From Escherichia phage SKA49, in sequence record NC_079180.1: a stretch of 51,548 nucleotides of DNA; one strand, given 5' to 3'. The notes below the pieces were generated by a model. That model was not told where the DNA came from. It worked only from the letters and a program-made list of their open reading frames with translations, and did not search any database. Below, in pieces: positions 2,446 to 15,730 of this stretch. Every line of letters begins with the position of its first letter. Position 1 is the first letter of the stretch. The translations under genes and the position numbers were made by a program.

Positions 2446-2453
2446 GAGAAACA

Positions 2454-2497
2454 GGGCTGTCATCGAAAGGTGATGGCCCTTTCTTTATTCTTTATTA
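2454..2497 (+). terminator. intrinsic terminator after RNAP gene
   Basis: Hairpin GGGCTGTCAT-CGAAAG-GTGATGGCCC (with G-T pairs) followed by TTTCTTTATTCTTTATT. Confidence 0.55.
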
Positions 2498-2525
2498 ATT
2501 AAATCCTTTAATTCCCAATATTCAA

Positions 2526-3300
2526 GCAATATTGCTGCATGTAATATTGTTTCAATATTCGACATTAGTTGGATGTGAAGTAACAGAATACGGAGAAGTA
2601 TTCCGCATGTCATGTTGAATCATTCTAGAAACATTCAGCATGTCAGCTTTGAGTTACAGCGTTGTAATGATGTGGCAATCATTGAACTCCCTGGGAAGGC
2701 CACCTACAGTTCCAGCAACCATGACTTAGAGTAGGAATATCTATCCGAAACTTGGACTTCATTGTAGTTTGGTGTGCTTCATCGTGAGAAAGGTAGCGAC
2801 AACTTTCATAAGCAAATAGCATGACTCATTCCAGACAAACTTGGAACAGCTCATGTAGTACCAGCATGTTCAATTGCGACAATATTGCTCCATCTCCTAT
2901 TATAAAGGCCCACCCACAAGCCGGGAGATAACTTTGGTAATATTGGAACTTTTGGACATGCTTCTTTCTTTCAATCAGAATTCGAAAGAAGAGAAGAGTC
3001 GGAGCAAAGCCTCTCGTTTACACGCAGAAGCCGCCCCGATTTTGAGCAACAAATATTGTGACAATATTGTCGCAGTATGGCATGTAAATATTGCTACAAA
3101 TTGGCATGTTAGAATGTGGCAGAATTGTTAGAGGACTAATCACCTCGAAGATACAATCGTCTGCCAATCTGGCATGTTAATTTTGTAACAGTATTTGTGC
3201 CAATTTCGCATGTAGTATTTAACCCAATATTCTTGCAACCCGCATGAATACTGGCTTTCAGCCAAGCGAAGGCTTTATCATCGCATGTAATATTGTGACA
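2526..3300. repeat. cluster of AT-rich palindromic motifs (CAATATTG, GACAATATTGTC) and GCATGTAATATTG-like repeats
   Basis: CAATATTG or near copies at about 2527, 2545, 2877, 3049, 3058, 3087, 3294, 3302; (G/C)GCATGT(A/T)A-TATT at about 2536, 3080, 3102, 3169, 3205, 3282. Confidence 0.5.
2562..2580 (+). promoter_or_regulatory. phage promoter-like motif ACATTAGTTGGATGTGAAG
   Basis: Conserved about 19-bp motif in an intergenic position, one of eight copies. Confidence 0.55.
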
Positions 3301-3508
3301 ATATTGGGATAAAACCCTTTATTTAAATCATTTAGTTTATTAATTAAATGGTCGGTTTTCTGTACATAGGTATTCAGCTGTTTGTGCCAAATACAAACAA
3401 GTTGGCTGCTTCTACAGAACTCCAGTGCTACAAATGTTCGTGCCAATCTGCTGCAATTTATCTCATTTGGCGGGGTAATATTGTATTAGGTTGGTACGTC
3501 ATTATTTC

Positions 3509-3529
3509 GATTAGTTGCATGTGAATAAG
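3509..3529 (+). promoter_or_regulatory. degenerate promoter-like motif GATTAGTTGCATGTGAATAAG
   Basis: Partial match to the ACATTAGTTGGATGTGAAG consensus, upstream of the early gene cluster. Confidence 0.3.
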
Positions 3530-3717
3530 ACCAAATCTCTGTAAATTCTGTGACAGATTTTAGAGAGATTATGTCTCCAAGCTAATCATTGTAGTTTTTA
3601 GACACTTTGTGTGTCACATATATAGCCTGTGAAAAACGTGTGGTATATTGCTGGATTGCGACGCGCCCACCAGACTAGGAAGTCACTGACGGCGGCACAC
3701 ACAGGAATACTATATAA

Positions 3718-3780
3718 CTCCCTACAACTTTAAGGTGGATTGAGGTAAGACAAGACCTCCACAATCGTTCTGTAGGGAGT
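3718..3780 (+). promoter_or_regulatory. 9-bp inverted repeat (CTCCCTACA ... TGTAGGGAG) with nested GTGGA/TCCAC stem, upstream of first early gene
   Basis: Perfect reverse-complement arms 3718-3726 and 3772-3780 separated by 45 nt; candidate RNA structure or processing site. Confidence 0.35.
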
Positions 3781-3804
3781 TTTCCTTTAACTTTGGAGAA
3801 TAAA

Positions 3805-4053
3805 ATGGATACTGTGATTAAAGCTGCTTGTTTCAAAGACCTGCAAGATGGTCAAATCTTCACTGTTCGTTCTGTGAAGTGGATTAAAGTAAATGAGTCA
3901 GATAAGTACAATGCTGTAAAGTTCTTTGATTCAAGCAAAGCATGTACTTTTAGCGACAATATTGTTGTCAATATTGAAGTCGAATTAATTCCTGATGACG
4001 GAGATGTTGAAGCAACTCTTCGTAACACTGCTGGATATAACGAGGGATTCTAA
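3805..4053 (+). CDS. hypothetical early protein (82 aa)
   Basis: ATG with GGAG RBS 6 nt upstream; track ORF begins at TTG 3793. Confidence 0.6.
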   Translation: MDTVIKAACFKDLQDGQIFTVRSVKWIKVNESDKYNAVKFFDSSKACTFSDNIVVNIEVELIPDDGDVEATLRNTAGYNEGF

Positions 4054-4296
4054 ATGAATTATGCTTTATATCAATACATCAATCGCGATGGTGTTGTTTC
4101 TCATGCTTTGGTTAATACTGAAACCAGAGCAATAATGTTGGCAGACTTAATATCTTATACATCACTTTACGAAAACAAGCTGGTGTGGAATAATGCCGCA
4201 TATCCTGAATATGTTTGGCAAGCAATCCAGAATGACAAACATCACAAAGTTGTGGCAACTGCCACACATCCAGATTTCTTGAAAGTAAGAGGTTAA
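4054..4296 (+). CDS. hypothetical early protein (80 aa)
   Basis: ATG abuts upstream stop (TAAATG); track ORF. Confidence 0.55.
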   Translation: MNYALYQYINRDGVVSHALVNTETRAIMLADLISYTSLYENKLVWNNAAYPEYVWQAIQNDKHHKVVATATHPDFLKVRG

Positions 4297-4298
4297 CA

Positions 4299-4487
4299 AT
4301 GGACTTCATCGTCTACTTTAAGTTAAATGGTGTGGAGCAAAGATTGTACTTCAATTCTTTACTTCGTTTGCAACAGTGGGCGGAGAAGTTTATTGGTTAC
4401 GACTTTGAATACATCAACGCATGTACACCTGACGAACATGAGGAAATCGTGTTCAGTTCATTAAACCAGATTCTGGAGGCCAAATGA
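4299..4487 (+). CDS. hypothetical early protein (62 aa)
   Basis: AAGAGG RBS before ATG; track ORF. Confidence 0.55.
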   Translation: MDFIVYFKLNGVEQRLYFNSLLRLQQWAEKFIGYDFEYINACTPDEHEEIVFSSLNQILEAK

Positions 4488-4648
4488 AGTTGTCCCACTT
4501 CAAATCTTTTAAATCCTGTGTTTACGCTGCTGCCTATGGCAGTTCAAACAAACGTTTGAAGAAAATGGCTAAAGAAGCAAATCCACGTATGCCTGCTCGT
4601 GAAGTGGCAAGACGTGTTAAATCAATTTACGAATATCTGGAGTATTAA
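4484..4648 (+). CDS. hypothetical small basic protein (54 aa)
   Basis: ATG overlaps upstream stop (ATGA); GGAGG RBS; below the 60-aa track cutoff, found by reading. Confidence 0.4.
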   Translation: MKLSHFKSFKSCVYAAAYGSSNKRLKKMAKEANPRMPAREVARRVKSIYEYLEY

Positions 4649-4831
4649 GTGAGCTATGAGAATCTGCTACTAAGAACTGGTGGTGGGATGCTCATACTGA
4701 CCACACCTGAGTTCCATTTCACGAAGGTTTACTCCGAAGAATTTAAATCCTGGTTCCCAGCAAGTCTAAAAACACGATGGCTTAAAGATTGTGTACTTGT
4801 TGGGAAGAATGTGAAGTTAAGGAACAAATAA
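4649..4831 (+). CDS. hypothetical protein (60 aa, GTG start)
   Basis: GGAG 7 nt before GTG; track ORF. Confidence 0.35.
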   Translation: MSYENLLLRTGGGMLILTTPEFHFTKVYSEEFKSWFPASLKTRWLKDCVLVGKNVKLRNK

Positions 4832-5004
4832 TGAACGACCAGCAATTCAACACATTCATGCAGCAGATTAATCATCAAGAATTGATGGACACTCTCAAAG
4901 GCAAGAAGCCAGTCGAACGTAAATATAGTAAAATTGATAATTATATGCCAACAATCATTGCATGTGTTGGTGTTGCTATTGTTCTCTACTTCCTGGTGAA
5001 ATAA
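4831..5004 (+). CDS. small protein with hydrophobic C-terminal segment (57 aa)
   Basis: AAGGA RBS before ATG 4831; C-terminus TIIACVGVAIVLYFLV looks transmembrane. Confidence 0.45.
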   Translation: MNDQQFNTFMQQINHQELMDTLKGKKPVERKYSKIDNYMPTIIACVGVAIVLYFLVK

Positions 5005-5087
5005 TGGACATTGTTAAGAAATTAGTATTCTGCATTCTAATGTTCCCTCTGGTGCTGCTCGTTGTGGGCAGCTTCTTAATCTTCTAA
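5004..5087 (+). CDS. possible 27-aa hydrophobic peptide MDIVKKLVFCILMFPLVLLVVGSFLIF
   Basis: ATG overlaps upstream stop (TAATG); entirely hydrophobic; below track cutoff. Confidence 0.25.
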   Translation: MDIVKKLVFCILMFPLVLLVVGSFLIF

Positions 5088-5099
5088 TAAGGCAATTCC

Positions 5100-5396
5100 A
5101 TGTCAATTCAGAAATTCCTTGATGTATCAAACGTTGCTAAGAATTCGATTCCAAGCAATCCTGACATTCTGACCTCAATGCGTGTTGATGTTGCACTTCT
5201 GGCTTTGGCTGGTGAGCACATCAATGTACTTGAAAGGCAAGTATATGACTTACAAACTGAATCAGACCGTCGAGCAGAGGTGTTGATTGAGTTCCAGAAA
5301 TCTTACGATGCTCTGCAAGAAGACCGAAACAATTTGCAACAACGGCTTGCAGATGCACTTGAAGAAATCGAAAGGTTAACACCTCCAACCGAATAA
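5100..5396 (+). CDS. hypothetical protein, coiled-coil-like (98 aa)
   Basis: Track ORF; heptad-like C-terminus. Confidence 0.55.
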   Translation: MSIQKFLDVSNVAKNSIPSNPDILTSMRVDVALLALAGEHINVLERQVYDLQTESDRRAEVLIEFQKSYDALQEDRNNLQQRLADALEEIERLTPPTE

Positions 5397-5411
5397 CTAT
5401 TGGGAGTTATT

Positions 5412-5675
5412 ATGGCTACTAAAACCGGAATGATGATTGTCCCAAGCCGTAATAACTCTTTAAGCGGCTTCACTCCGTATAAAATCTATGAAGTAATTTC
5501 TGGCACTGGTGAAGCAAACCTGTCAGAAGTTGCTTTGAAGTTGGGCCGTATGGTCCACTCCGAAATCTCCTGTAACGTAGTTGATGATGAAGGTAAAATC
5601 CGTTTTGTAACAATGGATTTCTTTCGTGAATTTAACCTCAAATCTGAGATAGGTGTTTTATATCATGAAATTTAA
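5412..5675 (+). CDS. hypothetical protein (87 aa)
   Basis: ATG with GGGAG RBS; in frame with track ORF 5400..5675. Confidence 0.55.
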   Translation: MATKTGMMIVPSRNNSLSGFTPYKIYEVISGTGEANLSEVALKLGRMVHSEISCNVVDDEGKIRFVTMDFFREFNLKSEIGVLYHEI

Positions 5676-5892
5676 ATGTGTTGCTTCAACCAAAGATTAT
5701 GTTCCAGTTGGCTTCATCGTTGAAGGTGAAGCTATCTCGCCTTTGGAATTTAAAGTGGCCAAATCGGCTGAGAATGTTTCTCCAGCATTTCGTAAAGGTG
5801 CTGTAGTGCCTATGAATGGTGCATTCTGGACATGGCAGCGTGACCATGAAGCAGAATTTGCAGACATTTGTGAACAAGGCAGTCTTCAATAA
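5665..5892 (+). CDS. hypothetical protein (75 aa)
   Basis: ATG 5665 with AGGTG RBS; in frame with track ORF 5653..5892. Confidence 0.5.
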   Translation: MKFKCVASTKDYVPVGFIVEGEAISPLEFKVAKSAENVSPAFRKGAVVPMNGAFWTWQRDHEAEFADICEQGSLQ

Positions 5893-5898
5893 TTTCCT

Positions 5899-5925
5899 CA
5901 ACCACTTTTGTAATGAGAGTGGTTG
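5899..5925 (+). terminator. hairpin CAACCACT-(11 nt)-AGTGGTTG after gene 5665..5892
   Basis: Perfect 8-bp stem immediately after stop codon; no strong T-run. Confidence 0.3.
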
Positions 5926-11761: not shown

Positions 11762-12436
11762 ATGTCTTATCATGATGATGACAAAGAGATTGCACTATCA
11801 ACGTGTAAGCAATGGCTCAATGATAATGATGCCGTCTATCTTGCCAAGGAAGATGTTATCATTATGTGGGTCCATTTTAATCCAGAATCAAAGCGCGGTG
11901 AGTGGCAACGCTACAAGATGAAAGAGGCTTGTCGCATAATTAAAGCCACACGCGCTGGCTTCTCTGCTATGAAATACATCAAGCCAGAGATGCTGATGCT
12001 TGCTGCACAGGAAGAAGAACGTGCATACAAGCAAGCTGTTAAATCTCGTTCAACTGTTCCTCCAGAGTTCTTTAATTTGGAGCGCGCTGGACACTTCAAC
12101 AATTTAGAAATGTTGACACTGTGCCTGTTGCAAGAATTAGTTGGAAGAGGACAAAACATTGAAGCTGTTTGTCTTGGAGAACTCATGAAAGAGTTGTTCT
12201 CGGCAAAGGGCTTTGCTGTGCCAAATCGAACTTTACGCTGGAAATTGTTGCGAGCAGTCGCGCAAGAAGCTGGTGTAGTTGTTCGTGACAGAACAAACCG
12301 ACTTACTGTAACTGGAGTTGGGCGTTTTGTAGCAATCCAGATTGAGGGTTATGACGAATCAATCATCACTGAACTCACTGTCGCTGAGACAAAGGATTTA
12401 GTAAATAAAACACTAGAACGATTCAATAGATATTGA
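11762..12436 (+). CDS. hypothetical protein (224 aa)
   Basis: ATG directly after upstream stop; in frame with track ORF 11705..12436. Confidence 0.5.
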   Translation: MSYHDDDKEIALSTCKQWLNDNDAVYLAKEDVIIMWVHFNPESKRGEWQRYKMKEACRIIKATRAGFSAMKYIKPEMLMLAAQEEERAYKQAVKSRSTVPPEFFNLERAGHFNNLEMLTLCLLQELVGRGQNIEAVCLGELMKELFSAKGFAVPNRTLRWKLLRAVAQEAGVVVRDRTNRLTVTGVGRFVAIQIEGYDESIITELTVAETKDLVNKTLERFNRY

Positions 12437-12465: not shown

Positions 12466-12484
12466 ACATTAGTTGGATGTGGAA
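12466..12484 (+). promoter_or_regulatory. phage promoter-like motif ACATTAGTTGGATGTGGAA
   Basis: Best consensus copy; about 75 nt upstream of the codon-optimised gene 12560. Confidence 0.6.
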
Positions 12485-12559: not shown

Positions 12560-12898
12560 ATGGCTAAGATTGTAACCGTAACTCAGTACGAAGCTAACGA
12601 TGGTTCCCTGTTCCTGACCGAAGCAGAGTGTAATGCACATGACTTCAAACTGGAAAACGGTGCTAAAATTGAGAAAGCTGCCGAAGCGTACCTGAACACC
12701 GTTGGCGCTATCGACCGTTCTCGCTCCATGCAGAAGAACACCATCGAGCAGTTCCTGGCATTCTACCTGCCGTGGGTTGAATCTGGTGAGCCGGAAGTTG
12801 AGCGTACTAAGTTCGATACTCCGAAAGAAGCTAAAGTTGCTGACGCAAGTGTTGCAGAAGCTGCCGAAGCTGCTGTTGAAGAAGCTCCGGTATTCTAA
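12560..12898 (+). CDS. small acidic protein with host-optimal codon usage (112 aa)
   Basis: AAGG RBS; codons dominated by CTG/CCG/CGT/GGT; strongly acidic, C-terminus AEAAEAAVEEAPVF. Confidence 0.7.
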   Translation: MAKIVTVTQYEANDGSLFLTEAECNAHDFKLENGAKIEKAAEAYLNTVGAIDRSRSMQKNTIEQFLAFYLPWVESGEPEVERTKFDTPKEAKVADASVAEAAEAAVEEAPVF

Positions 12899-13795
12899 GT
12901 TGCCGATGGCAAACTTGAGAGACTAAGCTAAATCGATCTGGCATGCACTGGAAGTTTCCGGTGCTGCCTTGAACCCATTCCAGAGTGAGTGGGCTTCAAT
13001 TTGTACATAATTCAAACACCAGTGCATGAGCCTTCGACGGAAGGCAATGTTGGGAAATTTGTTGTGTACAAATTGAAGTAGTTTTCTGAGTCTTACGACG
13101 GGCCTAAACTGCCTGGAGTTATTGCGACTGTTTTATTCATTTAAAATAAATGCAAATGATTCTGAAATGCGAGTTGCGGCTTAATTAAATTTAAGTCCTC
13201 TCCGTGGTCTTCCAATCCCACGTAACCAAATTTGGCGCATTGTGGCTTCGAGATGTGATTAATAAATCGGAGCAATAATTAATTTGTATTCTGCGATGCA
13301 AAGCAGGCTTAAGTCCTCCAGTGCGCGTGGGGATGTGACAGAGTACAAACTTAATTATGCAGTTGGATATTTCTAGAGGACGGACGAGCACACTGGAATG
13401 TCTTCAATTGGTTTAGTGTGAGAAGCTATGCCAATTTGAAACGTAACTCCTTGGGGAAGTGCTCCTCTGGATTTCCCTCCACGCAGGAATCTCAAGCCTG
13501 TGGCAGTGACTTCGAAGCTGCACTGCGTAACCTAATTCACCCTAAAGTGAATTGCCCTGAGCATGGAAATAAACTGCTCAAACCGATGGTATCTACAAAG
13601 GTAGATTAAATCAGGTTGCCTGTTGGTACTTGGGTTCAACACCTGCTTGCACTCGCAAAGTAGTGCCTCGTACCTGAGATGAAGTGAGTCGGGACCATCA
13701 ATCCCACGTTATGTCAAAACACAGTAGGCGACTCACGGATTCTACAAGCCTCGCAGTTCGGGAAAACCTGCGTTATCAAAACCCCCCACCTATTT

Positions 13796-13887
13796 GGACG
13801 AGTAGCTCAGAAGGTTTGCATTGTGCTCAGTCAGGTAGAGCAATCTGTTCGACAGATGTGTCGTTGGTTCGAATCCAACCTCGTCCA
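13796..13887 (+). tRNA. tRNA-like element (possible tRNA gene or pseudogene; isotype undetermined)
   Basis: Perfect 7-bp acceptor stem GGACGAG/CTCGTCC, canonical T-arm GTTGG-TTCGAAT-CCAAC, discriminator A; core about 19 nt longer than standard, with duplicated GCTCAG flanking a 20-nt insert. Confidence 0.4.
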
Positions 13888-13917
13888 CCCATTTTCAACA
13901 ATAAACATGGAGTCCTC

Positions 13918-14058
13918 ATGGACATTGATGCACTAGACAATTTGGACTTCGGTGCTGCCGAAGAAGCAATTGAAGAACTCAAGAAAAAGCAGGACGAAGA
14001 AGCAATCGTTCCTGGTGCTGGCGATAATGACTGCTCAAGCGGTGCGTGTGCCATCTAA
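13918..14058 (+). CDS. possible small acidic protein (46 aa)
   Basis: ATG with GGAG RBS 7 nt upstream; C-terminal part of track ORF 13684..14058, whose 5' part overlaps the tRNA-like element. Confidence 0.3.
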   Translation: MDIDALDNLDFGAAEEAIEELKKKQDEEAIVPGAGDNDCSSGACAI

Positions 14059-14066
14059 GGTGATTT

Positions 14067-14303
14067 ATGCAACAGCTTAAATCAGTAATTCTTGGCGTCC
14101 TGACTGCATTTGGTATTATCATTGCAGTGTTCCTCAAAGGCAAAAGCTCAGGCAAAGCCGAGGAGCGTCAGGAAGCCAAAGAGAAGCAATTCGATTCCAT
14201 TAAAGAATCTATCGAGATTAAAACGCATGTTCAGAAAGAAGTGTCTAGCAGTTCTGATAGCAATGTCGATAGTGAGTTGCTCTCAAAGTGGGTTCGTAAG
14301 TGA
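14067..14303 (+). CDS. small membrane protein (N-terminal TM helix, charged C-terminus; 78 aa)
   Basis: AAGGTGA RBS; TM segment SVILGVLTAFGIIIAVFL. Confidence 0.45.
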   Translation: MQQLKSVILGVLTAFGIIIAVFLKGKSSGKAEERQEAKEKQFDSIKESIEIKTHVQKEVSSSSDSNVDSELLSKWVRK

Positions 14304-14436
14304 TTATTGCTTAATTGCACAACCAATCTATTTGGATGTTGCAGAAGTGAAAATCTTATCACGCGAAACCAAAACACAGATTCTAGTCCACAATGAAACG
14401 TGGGCACAAAAGTGTTCTCAACTTACCCGACAGTGA
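14227..14436 (+). CDS. possible lipoprotein (69 aa) overlapping the 3' end of 14067..14303 in another frame
   Basis: Signal-like MFRKKCLAVLIAMSIVSC with lipobox-like IVSC; weak RBS. Confidence 0.25.
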   Translation: MFRKKCLAVLIAMSIVSCSQSGFVSDYCLIAQPIYLDVAEVKILSRETKTQILVHNETWAQKCSQLTRQ

Positions 14437-15499
14437 GTGAACAAGATGAGCCTGTTGCATCTATAAATAAGTACAGTGAAACAAATGCTCGCCATCGCAT
14501 TTCATTTGGCAGTCCGGTACGGGACTTTAAACACACGTATATCATAGTCGAGGGAGTGCGCGACTTTAAATAACGAGACTCTAGCTACTTGTAGCATAGT
14601 AGGTGTAATTCCTGGTGCTCTGGGCATAACACATGATAAATTGCTGCCTCCTAGGATTGGAACGTCCCGCTACACATCGTTAGTGTGAGAAGGTTAGTCC
14701 ACCGAGACAAAGGCTTGCGGCTTGACTCCGGCCAAAGAAGAAAACGGCGTGCTTGAGAACGAAGCTCCGATGACTCCGTAAAGTCAACGTAATGAACGCG
14801 AAAAGTTCAGGTGGTCACTTCCTAAAACAGTGTCCGAGAGCATCCTCGCCAAAGTGCTTGAGAACGTTAGCTCTGTCTTGCCAGCATTAATGGCACGTTG
14901 GCCGCGTAAAGGCCACAGCGTCTGACCAACGTATCGGTCACCAAATTCAATGGATTCGTAGAGTTAATTAAACCTGCACGATGGGATAGGGATATAGCAT
15001 CCGAGGCCGACTGTGTAATTGCTGGCTTACTATAAACCAGCCGAATCCGCCAAATCAATGGGCTAGTGCAAATGTCAGTCACTAGAAGATGTGTTGCAAA
15101 ACGTCTTCCATGATGTGCAAAGTGTCAGTCACGTGCCCGCCAATTTCCTCCAACAGTTATGCCTCTGTTCAAAAGGCTCAAGAGAGCGTCTGGCATACCG
15201 TAGCGATACGGCTTAGTTGCGCTGATTGTGTTGTGCAGAAAGAAAGTTCAGGCTTTCGTTTGGGTTACTCCTCATCCCGAAGTTAGCTGGATTCAAAATC
15301 CAGACTATGTTCCTATACACATGAAATATGCAAGTCGAGGGTTCTTAATGTTCAAACATGATGCGAGCATTAAGCGGGTTTATACTTTTCCCCGATGGTC
15401 CCCATAAACAAGGCTGATTCACTTGGGCGGTTCGAATCAAATTTAATAAGTGTTTTGTAATACTCAGGGCACTTACTTAAATTTTAACTGGAGAGAAAC

Positions 15500-15730
15500 A
15501 TGAAAACTGCTGAAATTGCCGAAGAGATTTATAAGGCCGTAATAGCCAACCAAATCACAAGTGAAGTCCTGCACATGGATATTGAAGAAGTTCGCAATGC
15601 CTTTGGTGGTTTTGCAATCTTGTCAATAGAAGCTGCGGAAGCACTGACAAACACGTACAATCAACGCGAATATGAAAAGCGTTCTGTACTAAATGCGTCG
15701 ATGAAAGAAATTCAGGCGTCATTAAAATAA
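15500..15730 (+). CDS. hypothetical protein (76 aa)
   Basis: GGAGAG RBS; track ORF. Confidence 0.55.
   Translation: MKTAEIAEEIYKAVIANQITSEVLHMDIEEVRNAFGGFAILSIEAAEALTNTYNQREYEKRSVLNASMKEIQASLK

Follow-up and report, generated by a model that had tools for sequence, protein, structure and literature searches.

The RNAs reported here are best compared with base-pairing small RNAs, with phage tRNA clusters and with tmRNA together with its phage-borne derivatives. Trans-acting sRNAs with 5′-terminal seeds and the anti-sRNAs of phages and prophages form a comparison class known from general work, and sRNAs that act by base-pairing typically carry their seed at the 5′ end. The tRNA region of phage T4 is a tRNA cluster that also produces the extra stable species 1 and 2 RNAs. 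In E. coli tmRNA (ssrA), positions -5 and -4 before the resume codon set the frame of the tag. The tmRNAs known from phages, found in Bxz1-like mycobacteriophages, Bacillus phage G and others, are complete molecules, and mycobacteriophage DS6A is described as carrying one half of tmRNA only, the tRNA-like domain (TLD) (PMC4131195, PMC11915505). Because such a TLD-only RNA has been reported to inhibit tmRNA, phage interference with tmRNA has a precedent (PMC4131195). The RNA family described below belongs to enterobacterial phages, which neither survey names; the first of them names mycobacteriophages and Bacillus phage G only (PMC4131195).

We analysed the block 12899-15499 of the window, the window being the whole 51,548-nt stretch of phage DNA under analysis. 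We found that this block represents an island of non-coding RNAs in a phiEcoM-GJ1-like (Chaseviridae) phage, in which small structured RNA modules on the + strand are arranged as a mosaic. The share covered by ORFs of 100 aa or more is 27% in the block compared to 81% in the whole window, and this 27% consists of two mechanical ORFs that run through a tRNA or overlap a real gene. The block had been described as ORF-poor and GC-elevated. The first half of this description stands with the amendment that two genuine small genes lie inside; the second does not hold, as the GC fraction of the block is 0.449, that of the window is 0.441, and 31% of stretches of the same size equal or exceed the block.

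13918-14058, + strand: small protein gene, 46 aa, acidic with a C-terminal CxxxxC, preceded by a GGAG ribosome-binding site
14067-14303, + strand: small protein gene, 78 aa, Rz-like spanin family (PHROG 1026, E = 3e-19)

Homologous ORFs of the first gene, whose 46-aa product has no PHROG match, are annotated in SA91KD, PYps3T and Faunus and readable in Erwinia phage Y2, and the second gene is annotated in GJ1 and Faunus. The non-coding parts of the block are 12899-13917 and 14304-15499, and these two gaps are also kept in the Chaseviridae genera Carltongylesvirus, Loessnervirus and Faunusvirus. The flanking genes (12560-12898 and 15500-15730) match PHROG families at 3e-65 and 1e-52, respectively, and none of six candidate ORFs of 57-71 aa within the block has a convincing PHROG family (best E = 0.0037).

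The direct repeats and hairpins listed in the preliminary description are indeed present, among them GTGCTTGAGAACG at 14749 and 14854, the pair AAATGTCAGTCAC / AAGTGTCAGTCAC at 15070 and 15120, and the hairpin GCCTTC-GACG-GAAGGC at 13030-13045. Together with an AT-rich patch, they could be taken as signs of an iteron-type replication origin. However, the repeats are dispersed and two-copy, with no phased array of three or more, and the cumulative GC skew rises smoothly and monotonically through the block with no inflection. By our own estimate about three such 10-mer repeats are expected by chance in 2.6 kb; the 10-mers are located in sequence resembling partial duplicates of the tag module described below, and several direct repeats sit in segments missing from relatives. 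The “AT-rich island” at 13140-13190 is the conserved resume-codon context and the tag of this same module. Protein genes hidden by frameshifts would agree with the small ORFs that depositors annotated here, such as GJ1 gp30 or the “endolysin” of PYps3T, but these annotated ORFs vary between records and are broken by indels in relatives. Decayed genes, also suggested initially, find no convincing PHROG match outside the two small genes, while the gaps persist across genera, and 13276-15499 has no similarity to any E. coli genome. Relatives differ from the block by module-sized indels, and conservation tracks base-pairing rather than reading frames, with the sole exception of a 10-codon tag lacking a start codon. 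A search of relatives for a conserved protein gene here, proposed at the outset as the test against an RNA reading, came out negative. We therefore consider a replication origin or frameshifted genes highly improbable. ORF-poor gaps of Chaseviridae are to be read as RNA islands, and the small ORFs that depositors placed in such gaps (“endolysin”, “tail tape measure protein”) are untrustworthy.

The tag module encodes an RNA that we term “tag RNA”, with the following parts:

13078-13273, + strand: tag RNA, about 196 nt, a tmRNA-like mRNA-like domain without tRNA-like domain (defined by covariation in A1, an alignment of 57 homologues)
13152-13184, + strand: tag frame GCA AAT GAT TCT GAA ATG CGA GTT GCG GCT TAA, encoding ANDSEMRVAA*
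13178-13197, + strand: helix-5-like hairpin GGCUUAA / UUAAGUC, recognised from sequence and predicted fold, with the stop codon UAA in the 5′ strand of the stem
13203-13235, + strand: pseudoknot A, stem CGUGG (13203-07) / CCACG (13218-22), loop CCAA (13212-15) pairing with UUGG (13232-35)
13236-13273, + strand: pseudoknot B, CGCAUU (13236-41) / GAUGUG (13252-57) and GCUUCGA (13245-51) / UCGGAGC (13267-73)

The tag RNA has a minimum free energy of -52.3 kcal/mol (z = -2.56). Three of its helices, including a pseudoknot, are paired in 99.5% of the cells of A1 with compensatory changes at 9 of 15 pairs; the observed covariation score was reached in none of 500 shuffles, and slid controls stayed at or below 50%. 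For pseudoknot A, the stem is paired in 98.9% of cells (3/5 pairs compensatory) and the helix from the loop to the downstream strand in 100% (4/4 pairs compensatory). The first helix of pseudoknot B, whose loop 3 is AUUAAUAAA, is paired in 99.7% of cells, one pair being C-G in 36, U-A in 12 and G-C in 9 sequences, and its second stem is represented in A1 by at least nine different complementary sequences (by eye). The helix-5-like stem also varies in sequence by lineage with its complementarity kept (A1, by eye), and in main-group relatives the stop codon is at the loop. Collectively, these results show that the tag RNAs form a family with a conserved structure.

Furthermore, we found that the tag is under a translation-like constraint. 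All 77 unique tag modules have exactly 10 codons and a stop, and the frame at 13152-13184 has no in-frame start codon. Residues A1, N2 and A10 are invariant, residue 3 is D or E, residue 7 is L or R and residue 9 is A or V. Diversity is 4.54 for third codon positions, compared to 2.56 for first and 2.38 for second positions. In the overlapping ATG frame, the length ranges between 5 and 13 codons, and three modules have GTG or CTG in place of the ATG. The resume determinants match those of E. coli tmRNA, with A at -4 in 77/77 modules and U at -5 in 72/77. Unlike the 3′ side with its pseudoknots, the region 5′ of the tag is predicted to hide the phage resume codon in a helix.

The tag RNA shares with tmRNA (RF00023, permuted RF01849 and RF04321) the GCA resume codon preceded by an A-rich stretch and -5U/-4A, a tag of 10 codons starting A-N-D/E and ending A-A or V-A (ANDENYALAA in E. 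coli), a stop codon in a helix-5-like hairpin, and H-type pseudoknots after the tag. In contrast to tmRNA, it is about 170-200 nt long instead of about 360 nt, has two downstream pseudoknots instead of three with no recognised equivalent of PK1, adds a 5′ arm antisense to host tmRNA, and has no acceptor stem, T-arm, G3-U70 pair or CCA. Without a tRNA-like domain, charging of this RNA with alanine on its own is impossible. In phage Sf11, a promoter (TTGACA-17-TAGATT) ends 12 nt upstream of AGUUUUCG, and in Felix variants L029 and L054 the promoter likewise abuts the 5′ motif (by eye), leaving no room for a 5′ acceptor strand. Search models agree with this picture. The only Rfam models responding to the tag RNA are those of tmRNA, aligned on the tag region at sub-threshold scores (alpha_tmRNA 17.7 bits, gathering 50; tmRNA_permuted 20.5 bits, gathering 47); none reached its gathering threshold in the window or in nine loci, and ARAGORN at default settings gave no tmRNA call for the window or any of 22 related loci. 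The best explanation is that the tag RNA derives from the mRNA-like half of tmRNA. Like the phage tmRNAs and the DS6A RNA, it would be a phage-borne derivative of the trans-translation RNA, but it corresponds to the half opposite to that of DS6A, the template only.

Homologues of the tag RNA were found in 752 phage records of unrelated groups, including Felix O1-like, Vi1-like, N4-like and GJ1-like phages, P1/P7, siphoviruses of about 46 kb such as Sf11 and others, as well as in IMG/VR contigs. Almost all are unannotated; the RNA has no Rfam family, and we found no literature on it among open-access papers and preprints. In Felixounavirus, Ackermannviridae, P1 and Sf11, it is located within or just upstream of tRNA genes.

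A missing acceptor could be supplied in trans, the tag RNA being the coding piece of an autonomous two-piece phage tmRNA whose acceptor is a separate phage tRNA-like RNA, for example TL-1 of the island or the T-arm-bearing hairpin modules beside the tag module in other phages.

14952-15052, + strand: TL-1, non-canonical tRNA-like RNA with a 7-bp acceptor stem (GGAUUCG / CGAAUCC) and an encoded CCA
15060-15142, + strand: TL-2, second putative tRNA-like unit, GGGC...GCCC-G-CCA, containing the GCAAA(T/G)TGTCAGTCAC repeat

TL-1 has a discriminator G, no D-stem and a T-like arm without a T-loop, and it is detected by neither ARAGORN nor Infernal. Among eight distinct homologues from several Chaseviridae genera, 12 of 12 tested pairs are always paired and 6 of 12 have compensatory changes. 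With covarying acceptor and T-like stems in this family and covarying pseudoknots in the tag RNA, the structured non-coding RNAs listed among the initial candidates for the block are supported. TL-2 is only tentatively called a tRNA-like unit from its sequence, because its acceptor pairing is imperfect (7/9); in Faunus, a tRNA-like unit follows TL-1 at the corresponding place. The presence of such RNAs with encoded CCA in the same island, a G3-U70 pair in one TL-1 homologue (L169, by eye) and T-arm-like hairpins just 3′ of the tag module in several phages (by eye) all speak for a two-piece tmRNA, as does a permuted tmRNA called by ARAGORN at 12889-13275 when stringency is lowered to 70%. We rejected this last candidate: its proposed tRNA-like domain is not conserved in close relatives, with the CCA lost in GJ1 and the segment replaced in SA91KD and Mangalitsa, and the same threshold gave five obviously false calls. 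The G3-U70 pair is the exception, with A3-U70 in 7 of 8 TL-1 sequences, and to our knowledge A3-U70 is not an alanine identity element. Moreover, a scan for the TL-1 motif returned only Chaseviridae-sized contigs whereas the tag RNA is found in many other groups, none of the modules accompanies the tag RNA in every group, and a two-piece tmRNA leaves the antisense match to host tmRNA unexplained. We thus regard it as improbable.

This match involves the conserved 5′ arm of the tag RNA, which by sequence is complementary to E. coli tmRNA nt ~68-107, including the resume codon and codons 3-6. The complementarity was found after looking for it, with no prior hypothesis, and the host tmRNA compared is that of E. 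coli only. In the window, the arm comprises two blocks:

13078-13086, + strand: 5′ seed GUAGUUUUC, complementary to E. coli tmRNA nt 99-107 (host tag codons 4-6)
13122-13134, + strand: second antisense block UUGCGACUGUUUU, pairing without interruption over 13 positions (one G-U) with AAAAUAGUCGCAA, E. coli tmRNA nt 81-93, a segment that covers the resume codon and the upstream determinant

The first 14 nt pair in a helix of 9-12 bp (median 10 bp) starting from tmRNA nt 94-99 in 76/77 modules, compared to a median of only 6 bp with their own RNA, and helices of at least 10 bp were obtained in 6 of 300 trials with shuffled tmRNA. The antisense motif GCGAC fits the host GUCGC and not the AAUGC of the phage itself. 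Collinear second and third segments match tmRNA nt 79-93 and 68-81 in every lineage via different sequences. For the main group, duplexes between the whole 5′ domain and full tmRNA reach -40 to -50 kcal/mol (z = -3 to -8), always at tmRNA nt ~54-107, and for nearly all variants none of 100 shuffles reached this energy. With the opening of its own fold accounted for, the window's RNA has a net binding energy of -13.2 kcal/mol compared to -7.1 +/- 2.2 kcal/mol for shuffled targets (0/60), and that of Sf11 has -20.3 compared to -8.6 +/- 2.7 kcal/mol; for JH2, the cofold gain with tmRNA was not significant. The global duplex statistic is weak in the window's own lineage (z = -0.7 to -2.2), and RNAduplex energies in a tile scan of the whole window are noisy, with the tag site outside the 15 lowest-energy tiles. 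For this reason, the case for the window is based on the two helices of 9 and 13 bp, on the cofold minimum-energy structure, which uses exactly both blocks, and on the family pattern. We infer that the tag RNA pairs with tmRNA in vivo.

These results suggest that phages interfere with or re-programme bacterial ribosome rescue through the tag RNA. Our preferred reading, held tentatively and at slightly less than an even chance, is that the tag RNA of this island docks on host tmRNA and masks the host template so that the phage tag is used instead. The free 5′ end would provide the toehold, on the unpaired part of host tmRNA that encodes the tag (nt 96-107). From there, pairing would extend across the host resume codon and upstream determinant (nt 81-93) and, for the majority of the other phage lineages, reach the 3′ strand of host pseudoknot 1 (nt 68-81). 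Such pairing would mask the host tag template and open the phage helix in which the phage resume codon is otherwise hidden. The phage template would be held by base-pairing alone to the host tRNA-like domain, which together with SmpB would then bring the ribosome to the tag encoded by the phage. Rescue of stalled ribosomes would go on, with nascent chains receiving the tag of the phage. Most phage tags still end in AA, which makes a benefit of swapping tags less evident. As a general scheme for many enterobacterial phages, namely a parasitic half-tmRNA that invades by a toehold, silences the host template and appends the phage tag, we consider this possible but doubtful.

The same antisense evidence equally fits a pure anti-tmRNA sRNA that blocks or destabilises tmRNA at its template and pseudoknot 1, with the tag part an untranslated structural mimic, and the 5′ position of the seed is in line with such an sRNA, which might also sequester SmpB or S1. 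Like base-pairing sRNAs, the tag RNA has a short, invariant and probably single-stranded 5′ end matching an accessible host RNA region, with extended imperfect pairing beyond this seed. Unlike them, its target would be tmRNA and not an mRNA or sRNA, it carries a copy of the very element it would mask, and no Hfq-type terminator module is evident. Yet the tag behaves as a translated frame, with its fixed number of codons, third positions about 1.8 times more variable and conservative replacements, and a plain antisense RNA needs neither the -5U/-4A, the stop-codon hairpin nor the two pseudoknots that are kept. We accordingly judge a pure anti-tmRNA function unlikely and propose that the outcome of pairing is use of the phage tag and not simple inhibition.

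If the docking and tag replacement proposed above are true, hundreds of sequenced phages, including P1, P7 and Felix O1 relatives, carry an unannotated conserved RNA whose likely target, trans-translation, is among the most conserved bacterial quality-control systems. It would be the first template-only tmRNA derivative and the first natural RNA proposed to act on tmRNA via base-pairing, and would amount to viral re-programming of ribosome rescue and proteolytic tagging. If the antisense half alone is true, phages would still modulate ribosome rescue, with bearing on phage therapy strains, on the tmRNA-dependent virus resistance of recoded genomes, and on gene finders for tmRNA, which overlook RNAs of this class.

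The tag RNA is surrounded by further modules:

12994-13078, + strand: long hairpin (inverted repeat) immediately preceding the tag RNA, with 94% complementarity between its 17-nt arms
13275-13358, + strand: second long hairpin (inverted repeat and sequence), present in GJ1-like relatives with variable “mini-tags”
13673-13794, + strand: conserved structured element, 77-84% identical in L169 and Erwinia phage Y2, also in Fifi44
13796-13887, + strand: tRNA-Arg(UCG)-like gene with a 23-nt D-loop insertion
14543-14581, + strand: conserved hairpin CAUAGUCG-AGGGAGUGCG-CGACUUUAAAUAACGAGACUC, kept in GJ1, SA91KD and Fifi44 and partly in Faunus
14796-14943, + strand: conserved module ending in a minihelix, UGACC (14923-27) / GGUCA (14936-40), then CCA

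The first hairpin has a counterpart at the same place in Felixounavirus JH2 (about 83% identical, covarying stem) and is optional: SA91KD, Mangalitsa and Felix variants L029 and L054 lack it or have another sequence in its place. Its role may be in processing, by releasing the tag RNA at its 5′ end. The apex of the second hairpin repeats motifs of the tag module (GCA AAG CAG GCU UAA, then UUAAGUCCUC), and from its sequence this hairpin looks like a degenerate partial copy of that module. The arms of the hairpin at 14543-14581 resemble the host resume motif AUAGUCG and the tag RNA antisense motif GCGACUUU. The element at 13673-13794 has an 8-bp stem, GUGAGUCG / CGACUCAC, and a hairpin, CGCAG...CUGCG, followed by UUAUCAAAACC, and precedes a tRNA or tRNA-like gene in several genera.

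The tRNA-like element reported initially is upheld by Infernal (RF00005, 45.2 bits; gathering 29). ARAGORN calls the unit Leu(CAG), 97 nt, and the GJ1 annotation reads “tRNA-Arg, may contain an intron”. Its 3′ end is ACCC in the window, where the CCA is not fully encoded, compared to GCCA in GJ1; SA91KD has a different D-loop insertion, and PYps3T lacks the gene. GJ1 and SA91KD keep the module at 14796-14943, of which Fifi44 and Faunus share the 5′ part. As in T4-type tRNA clusters, the island is polycistronic, ORF-poor and mosaic, with tRNA or tRNA-like RNAs with encoded CCA, and homing endonuclease genes are inserted in its relatives. In contrast to phage tRNA clusters, only one unit passes the tRNA model and the others have no D-stems or T-loops. 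Matches to the phage-RNA-polymerase promoter consensus are absent inside the block, the nearest lying upstream at 12136 and 12468. Transcription may run rightward from these and be followed by cutting into small RNAs, in which case the odd tRNA-Arg, the CCA-ending tRNA-like RNAs and the hairpins would be separate small RNAs or processing elements of the island.

The frequent gain and loss of modules in relatives, with insertions of HNH endonuclease and other genes, the tRNA missing from PYps3T and the likeness of the second hairpin to a decayed copy raise the question of whether the block is largely functionless, made of spacer or processing sequence of a degenerate tRNA cluster and recombined relics of host ssrA. 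Relics are difficult to reconcile with a tag module present in ~750 records of unrelated families with compensatory changes and a 10-codon frame, with the compensatory changes of TL-1 across genera and with the persistence of both non-coding gaps in three genera, and we regard this explanation as quite improbable. Two further stretches of the island differ in their conservation:

14609-14787, + strand: variable insert, wholly or largely missing in SA91KD, GJ1, PYps3T and Erwinia phages
15143-15499, + strand: conserved non-coding stretch up to the next gene

ORFs within the latter have no PHROG match, and the stretch is 76% identical to Erwinia phage Faunus over 15156-15434; the variable insert bears one copy of the GTGCTTGAGAACG repeat.

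In phiEcoM-GJ1-like phages (Chaseviridae, Carltongylesvirus and relatives), we found a counterpart of the 2.6-kb block at 12899-15499 with 92-96% identity, located between the gp29 and gp32 homologues and upstream of thyX. The block had been described as poor in ORFs, and this is borne out: ORFs of at least 100 aa occupy 27% of it versus 81% of the window, and the 27% consists of two mechanical ORFs. The direct repeats and hairpins listed for it are also found there. The elevated GC content does not hold up, with 0.449 for the block versus 0.441 for the window and 31% of equal-sized windows as high or higher. The flanking genes match PHROGs at 3e-65 and 1e-52, and six other candidate ORFs in the block lack a convincing PHROG family. 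The readings of the block as an iteron-type origin or as a hidden gene were both rejected. The features of the block are as follows.

Features of the block (window positions)
12994-13078: H1, long hairpin flanking the tag RNA
13078-13273, + strand: tag RNA, structured, about 196 nt, with the 10-codon tag ANDSEMRVAA
13275-13358: H2, long hairpin flanking the tag RNA; its apex carries a mini tag-like frame GCA AAG CAG GCT TAA, then UUAAGUCCUC as in the real tag module
13673-13794: conserved element, kept across genera
13796-13887: tRNA-Arg-like gene, 45.2 bits as tRNA; anticodon loop Arg(UCG) by eye
13918-14058: small protein gene, 46 aa, mid-block
14067-14303: small protein gene, 78 aa, mid-block; PHROG 1026, Rz-like spanin, 3e-19
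14543-14581: conserved hairpin CAUAGUCG...CGACUUU, kept across genera
ending at 14943: minihelix ending in CCA, flanking TL-1
14952-15052: TL-1, non-canonical tRNA-like RNA with a 7-bp acceptor stem, discriminator base and encoded CCA; no D-stem, no T-loop
15060-15142: TL-2, putative second tRNA-like unit, flanking TL-1

The Erwinia phages Y2 and Faunus (Faunusvirus), together with Fifi44 (like Y2 a Loessnervirus), share this layout of a ~1-kb non-coding gap, two small genes and a second gap of ~1.1 kb. In close relatives the block is a mosaic, with segments of 60-200 nt gained or lost and, in some, HNH endonuclease or other genes inserted; positions 13276-15499 have zero matches in 5,426 E. 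coli genomes. The small ORFs that depositors placed across this RNA island differ by record (ORF035 and ORF041 in PYps3T, gp30 in GJ1, gp36-gp45 in Y2), and some carry functional labels such as 'endolysin' or 'tail tape measure protein'; our analysis gave no support for them and they are likely over-annotation. Elsewhere in the window, a 3.5-kb stretch at 2446-5922, longer than the block, also has no ORF of at least 100 aa and presumably holds small early genes.

Parts of the first gap match unannotated spacers of unrelated phages: positions 13007-13086 match Felixounavirus phages, and ~13124-13274 matches Erwinia Chaseviridae and Ackermannviridae. In the Felixounavirus JH2, the match sits in a tRNA cluster between tRNA-Ile and tRNA-Arg, directly after a TTGACA-17-TATAGT promoter, which is P45 in the list of the Felix O1 genome paper (PMC3185647). 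With GCA taken as the first codon, the shared core gives the peptides ANDSEMRVAA* (window), ANDNVFLAVA* (JH2), ANDDVVLMAA* (Klebsiella phage Magnus) and ANDNEMRAAA* (Y2); the tag of E. coli ssrA is ANDENYALAA. Among Rfam models, only those for tmRNA responded, below threshold and aligned on the tag and the sequence 3' of it; in gathering and E-value modes alike, Rfam returned no family for the tag RNA or TL-1.

A scan of IMG/VR with the 14-mer GGTCTTCCAATCCC gave nearly all chance matches and was replaced by a gapped pattern. From IMG/VR together with the loci retrieved, the gapped pattern recovered 97 elements, 87 of them unique. Applied to the species genome collection, it gave a single real match among the 120 listed, the rest being chance, and that search carries no host-range information. 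A blastn search with one copy of the module matched 752 phage records (by the first word of the organism name, 272 Salmonella, 218 Escherichia, 110 Klebsiella, 38 Erwinia and others), which span Ackermannviridae, Felixounavirus, siphoviruses of ~46-48 kb such as Sf11, podoviruses of ~72 kb, P1 and P7. Almost all of the phage records listed have no annotation, or just a tiny hypothetical ORF, under the match. The module is also matched in 691 of 5,426 complete E. coli genomes, with 591 of the 741 places on plasmids. It lies upstream of tRNA-Ser and tRNA-Arg in Sf11, and a diverged copy in P7 (2495-2680 of the fetched locus) lies in the ban operon leader, ahead of tRNA-Asn and tRNA-Thr. P1 and P7 both have this diverged module, with the tag ANDDLMMAAA, in the leader of the C1-controlled ban operon, and it bears no annotation despite how much these phages have been studied.

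An alignment of 57 tag RNAs, together with RNAalifold, supports four structural elements: a hairpin that contains the stop codon, pseudoknot A (a stem with a 10-nt loop, from which four bases pair to a strand lying 10 nt farther 3'), pseudoknot B directly adjoining it, and a 5' helix in which the surroundings of the resume codon pair with upstream sequence. Three helices align cleanly; in these, 99.5% of cells are paired, compensatory changes occur in 9 of 15 pairs, and the covariation score of 0.400 is reached by none of 500 shuffles, which give 0.169; slid controls are at most 50% paired. Each of the 77 unique modules has a frame of exactly 10 sense codons followed by a stop. Residues A1, N2 and A10 of the tag never vary, position 3 takes D or E, position 7 L or R, and position 9 A or V, and diversity is highest at third codon positions (4.54 versus 2.56 at first and 2.38 at second positions). 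An overlapping ATG frame ranges from 5 to 13 codons and has GTG or CTG for its ATG in three modules. The resume context has an invariant A at -4 and U at -5 in 72 of 77 modules, both as in E. coli tmRNA, while -3 to -1 differ. Judged from these sequence patterns, the tag behaves as a translated frame under peptide-level constraint.

The module has no tRNA-like domain (TLD). ARAGORN at default settings found no tmRNA in the window or the related loci; at 70% stringency it placed a permuted tmRNA, with the tag correctly read, at 12889-13275, and we rejected the TLD of this call, which is unconserved in close relatives and comes at a threshold that yields five false calls. A strong sigma-70 promoter of Sf11 stops 12 nt ahead of the invariant motif AGUUUUCG, and by eye the Felix variants L029 and L054 are laid out in the same way; the RNA would therefore begin only a few nucleotides before the motif, leaving no space for an acceptor strand. 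Where the module lies away from a transcript start, AGUUUUCG directly adjoins a long near-perfect hairpin (H1 in the window and also in JH2, other hairpins elsewhere), and such hairpins presumably serve as processing sites from which the 5' end is released. A supposed homology of the H1 apex to the 5' region of tmRNA was discarded as coincidence, as the shared motifs, UUCGACGG and GUGCAUG, come in the wrong order and are unconserved in JH2.

As for transcription, the GJ1 phage-promoter consensus ATTAGTTGGAWGWGGA has two perfect matches, at 12136-12151 and 12468-12483, both upstream of the block, and nine in the window with at most three mismatches versus 1.5 expected, eight of the nine on the + strand. 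Inside the block there is neither a match to this consensus nor a notable sigma-70 promoter, and the block appears to be transcribed rightward within a longer transcript.

The tag RNA differs from tmRNA on the defining test, having no TLD and scoring below the Rfam thresholds, but it shares the features of the template. Collectively, these results show that it is a conserved, structured, template-only derivative of tmRNA. The phage carriers named in tmRNA database papers are only mycobacteriophages, Bacillus phage G and, for a TLD-only RNA, DS6A, and 79 unique sequences from bacteriophages are counted in the 2025 update (PMC4131195, PMC11915505). A marine methylophage and Bradyrhizobium phages have been discussed as further carriers of complete tmRNAs. 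Full-text searches of open-access papers and preprints turned up no account of a phage RNA that is template-only or directed against tmRNA.

The 5' arm of the tag RNA is, by sequence, complementary to the template region of host tmRNA, a relation that was noticed post hoc. The invariant 5' motif is reverse-complementary to E. coli tmRNA nt 96-107, GAC GAA AAC UAC, which are host tag codons 3-6, and lineages lengthen the match on different sides (CCAGUUUUCGUC for nt 96-105, AUAGUUUUCGU for nt 97-106 and, in the window, GUAGUUUUC for nt 99-107). The first 14 nt make a 9-12-bp helix with tmRNA, starting at nt 94-99, in 76 of 77 modules, versus only 5-8 bp with their own RNA; shuffled tmRNA gives at least 10 bp in 6 of 300 trials. 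A search for a partner of the motif, both inside the phage RNA and 3' of pseudoknot B, found none that is conserved. Every lineage has further collinear antisense segments, made by different sequences: UUGCGACUGUUUU in the window pairs with tmRNA nt 81-93 (13 bp, one G-U), and others are CGAUUAUUUUU in Y2, ACUAUUUUUU in L195 and UGCGACUGUUUUU in L154. In the main group, GCGACU pairs by eye with nt 86-91. UUUGCGG(N)UUUUUUA of the same group pairs with nt 68-81, a segment in which we place the 3' strand of pseudoknot 1 of the host RNA. The conserved GCGAC complements the host GUCGC, not the phage's own AAUGC.

Because a whole-window RNAduplex tile scan against tmRNA was too noisy to rank or single out the site, we relied on contiguous helices, dinucleotide shuffles and cofolding. 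For the main group, the whole 5' domain pairs with full-length tmRNA at -40 to -50 kcal/mol (z = -3 to -8), always on nt ~54-107, and in nearly all variants none of 100 dinucleotide shuffles reaches this; in the window's own lineage this global statistic is weak (z = -0.7 to -2.2). The cofold gain with tmRNA nt 67-112, net of the energy needed to open the internal structure of the phage RNA, is -13.2 kcal/mol for the window versus -7.1 +/- 2.2 for shuffled targets, none of 60 of which reaches it. The gain is -20.3 kcal/mol for Sf11 and -16.0 kcal/mol for Y2, again with 0 of 60 shuffled targets reaching it, and a non-significant -11.3 kcal/mol for JH2. The complex predicted for the window uses exactly these blocks, GUAGUUUUC and UUGCGACUGUUUU.

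We propose that the arm may gain a toehold, through its free 5' end, on the host template, which is single-stranded, and that pairing would next zip over the host resume codon, which would mask the host template and free the phage resume codon from its internal helix. Such pairing could amount to plain inhibition of tmRNA by the tag RNA, which we regard as rather unlikely, or the phage tag could replace the host tag on the host TLD. We tentatively prefer tag replacement because the phage RNA retains all that a template needs. That phage and host tags differ precisely in codons 3-6 fits a need to avoid self-pairing with the seed.

Hairpin 14543-14581 carries the host tmRNA resume motif AUAGUCG in its 5' arm and the tag RNA antisense motif GCGACUUU in its 3' arm, and might mimic or regulate the proposed duplex between tag RNA and tmRNA. 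The H2 mini-frame varies in relatives (AMQA, AGQA, VMQT), and H2 is probably a decayed partial duplicate of the tag module. Tandem long hairpins also flank the module in L237 (2160-2240), Magnus (3125-3290 of the fetched locus), L132, L129 and numerous IMG/VR loci, whose surroundings are siphovirus-like, temperate-like or those of Ackermannviridae. With conserved bases CACAACAGGTAAGAGCATT ... CAGTGCTCTTTCCGTTGTG, variable apexes and, in some, a canonical T-arm GGTTCGAATCC, they look like a cassette system. In phage lambda, a 'GGTAAGAGCATT...' hairpin module may lie downstream of tR'.

The tRNA-Arg-like gene is the sole tRNA that standard tools find in the window and has a 23-nt D-loop insertion, as placed by Infernal. 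ARAGORN calls it Leu(CAG) and the GJ1 depositors Arg; the insertion differs in SA91KD, PYps3T has no such gene, and the 3' end is ACCC here and GCCA in GJ1. Tandem tRNA-like RNAs of the TL type go undetected by ARAGORN and Infernal. TL-1 has eight homologues across genera, 100% paired, with 6 of 12 pairs compensatory; position 3-70 is G3-U70 in one (L169) and A3-U70 in seven. Similar tandem CCA-ending units are present in Y2, Faunus and L169. Tandem units with 7-bp acceptor stems and encoded CCA occur in the window, at 5585-5665 in the Y2 locus, at 3229-3411 in L240 and at 2946-3025 in L169, separated by spacers such as AAAUCAAUGG. In Magnus, a match to the Rfam gammaproteobacterial sRNA STnc100 (4805-5019 of the fetched locus; 52.9 bits versus a gathering threshold of 47) shares an ORF-poor region with the tag module, near tRNA genes.
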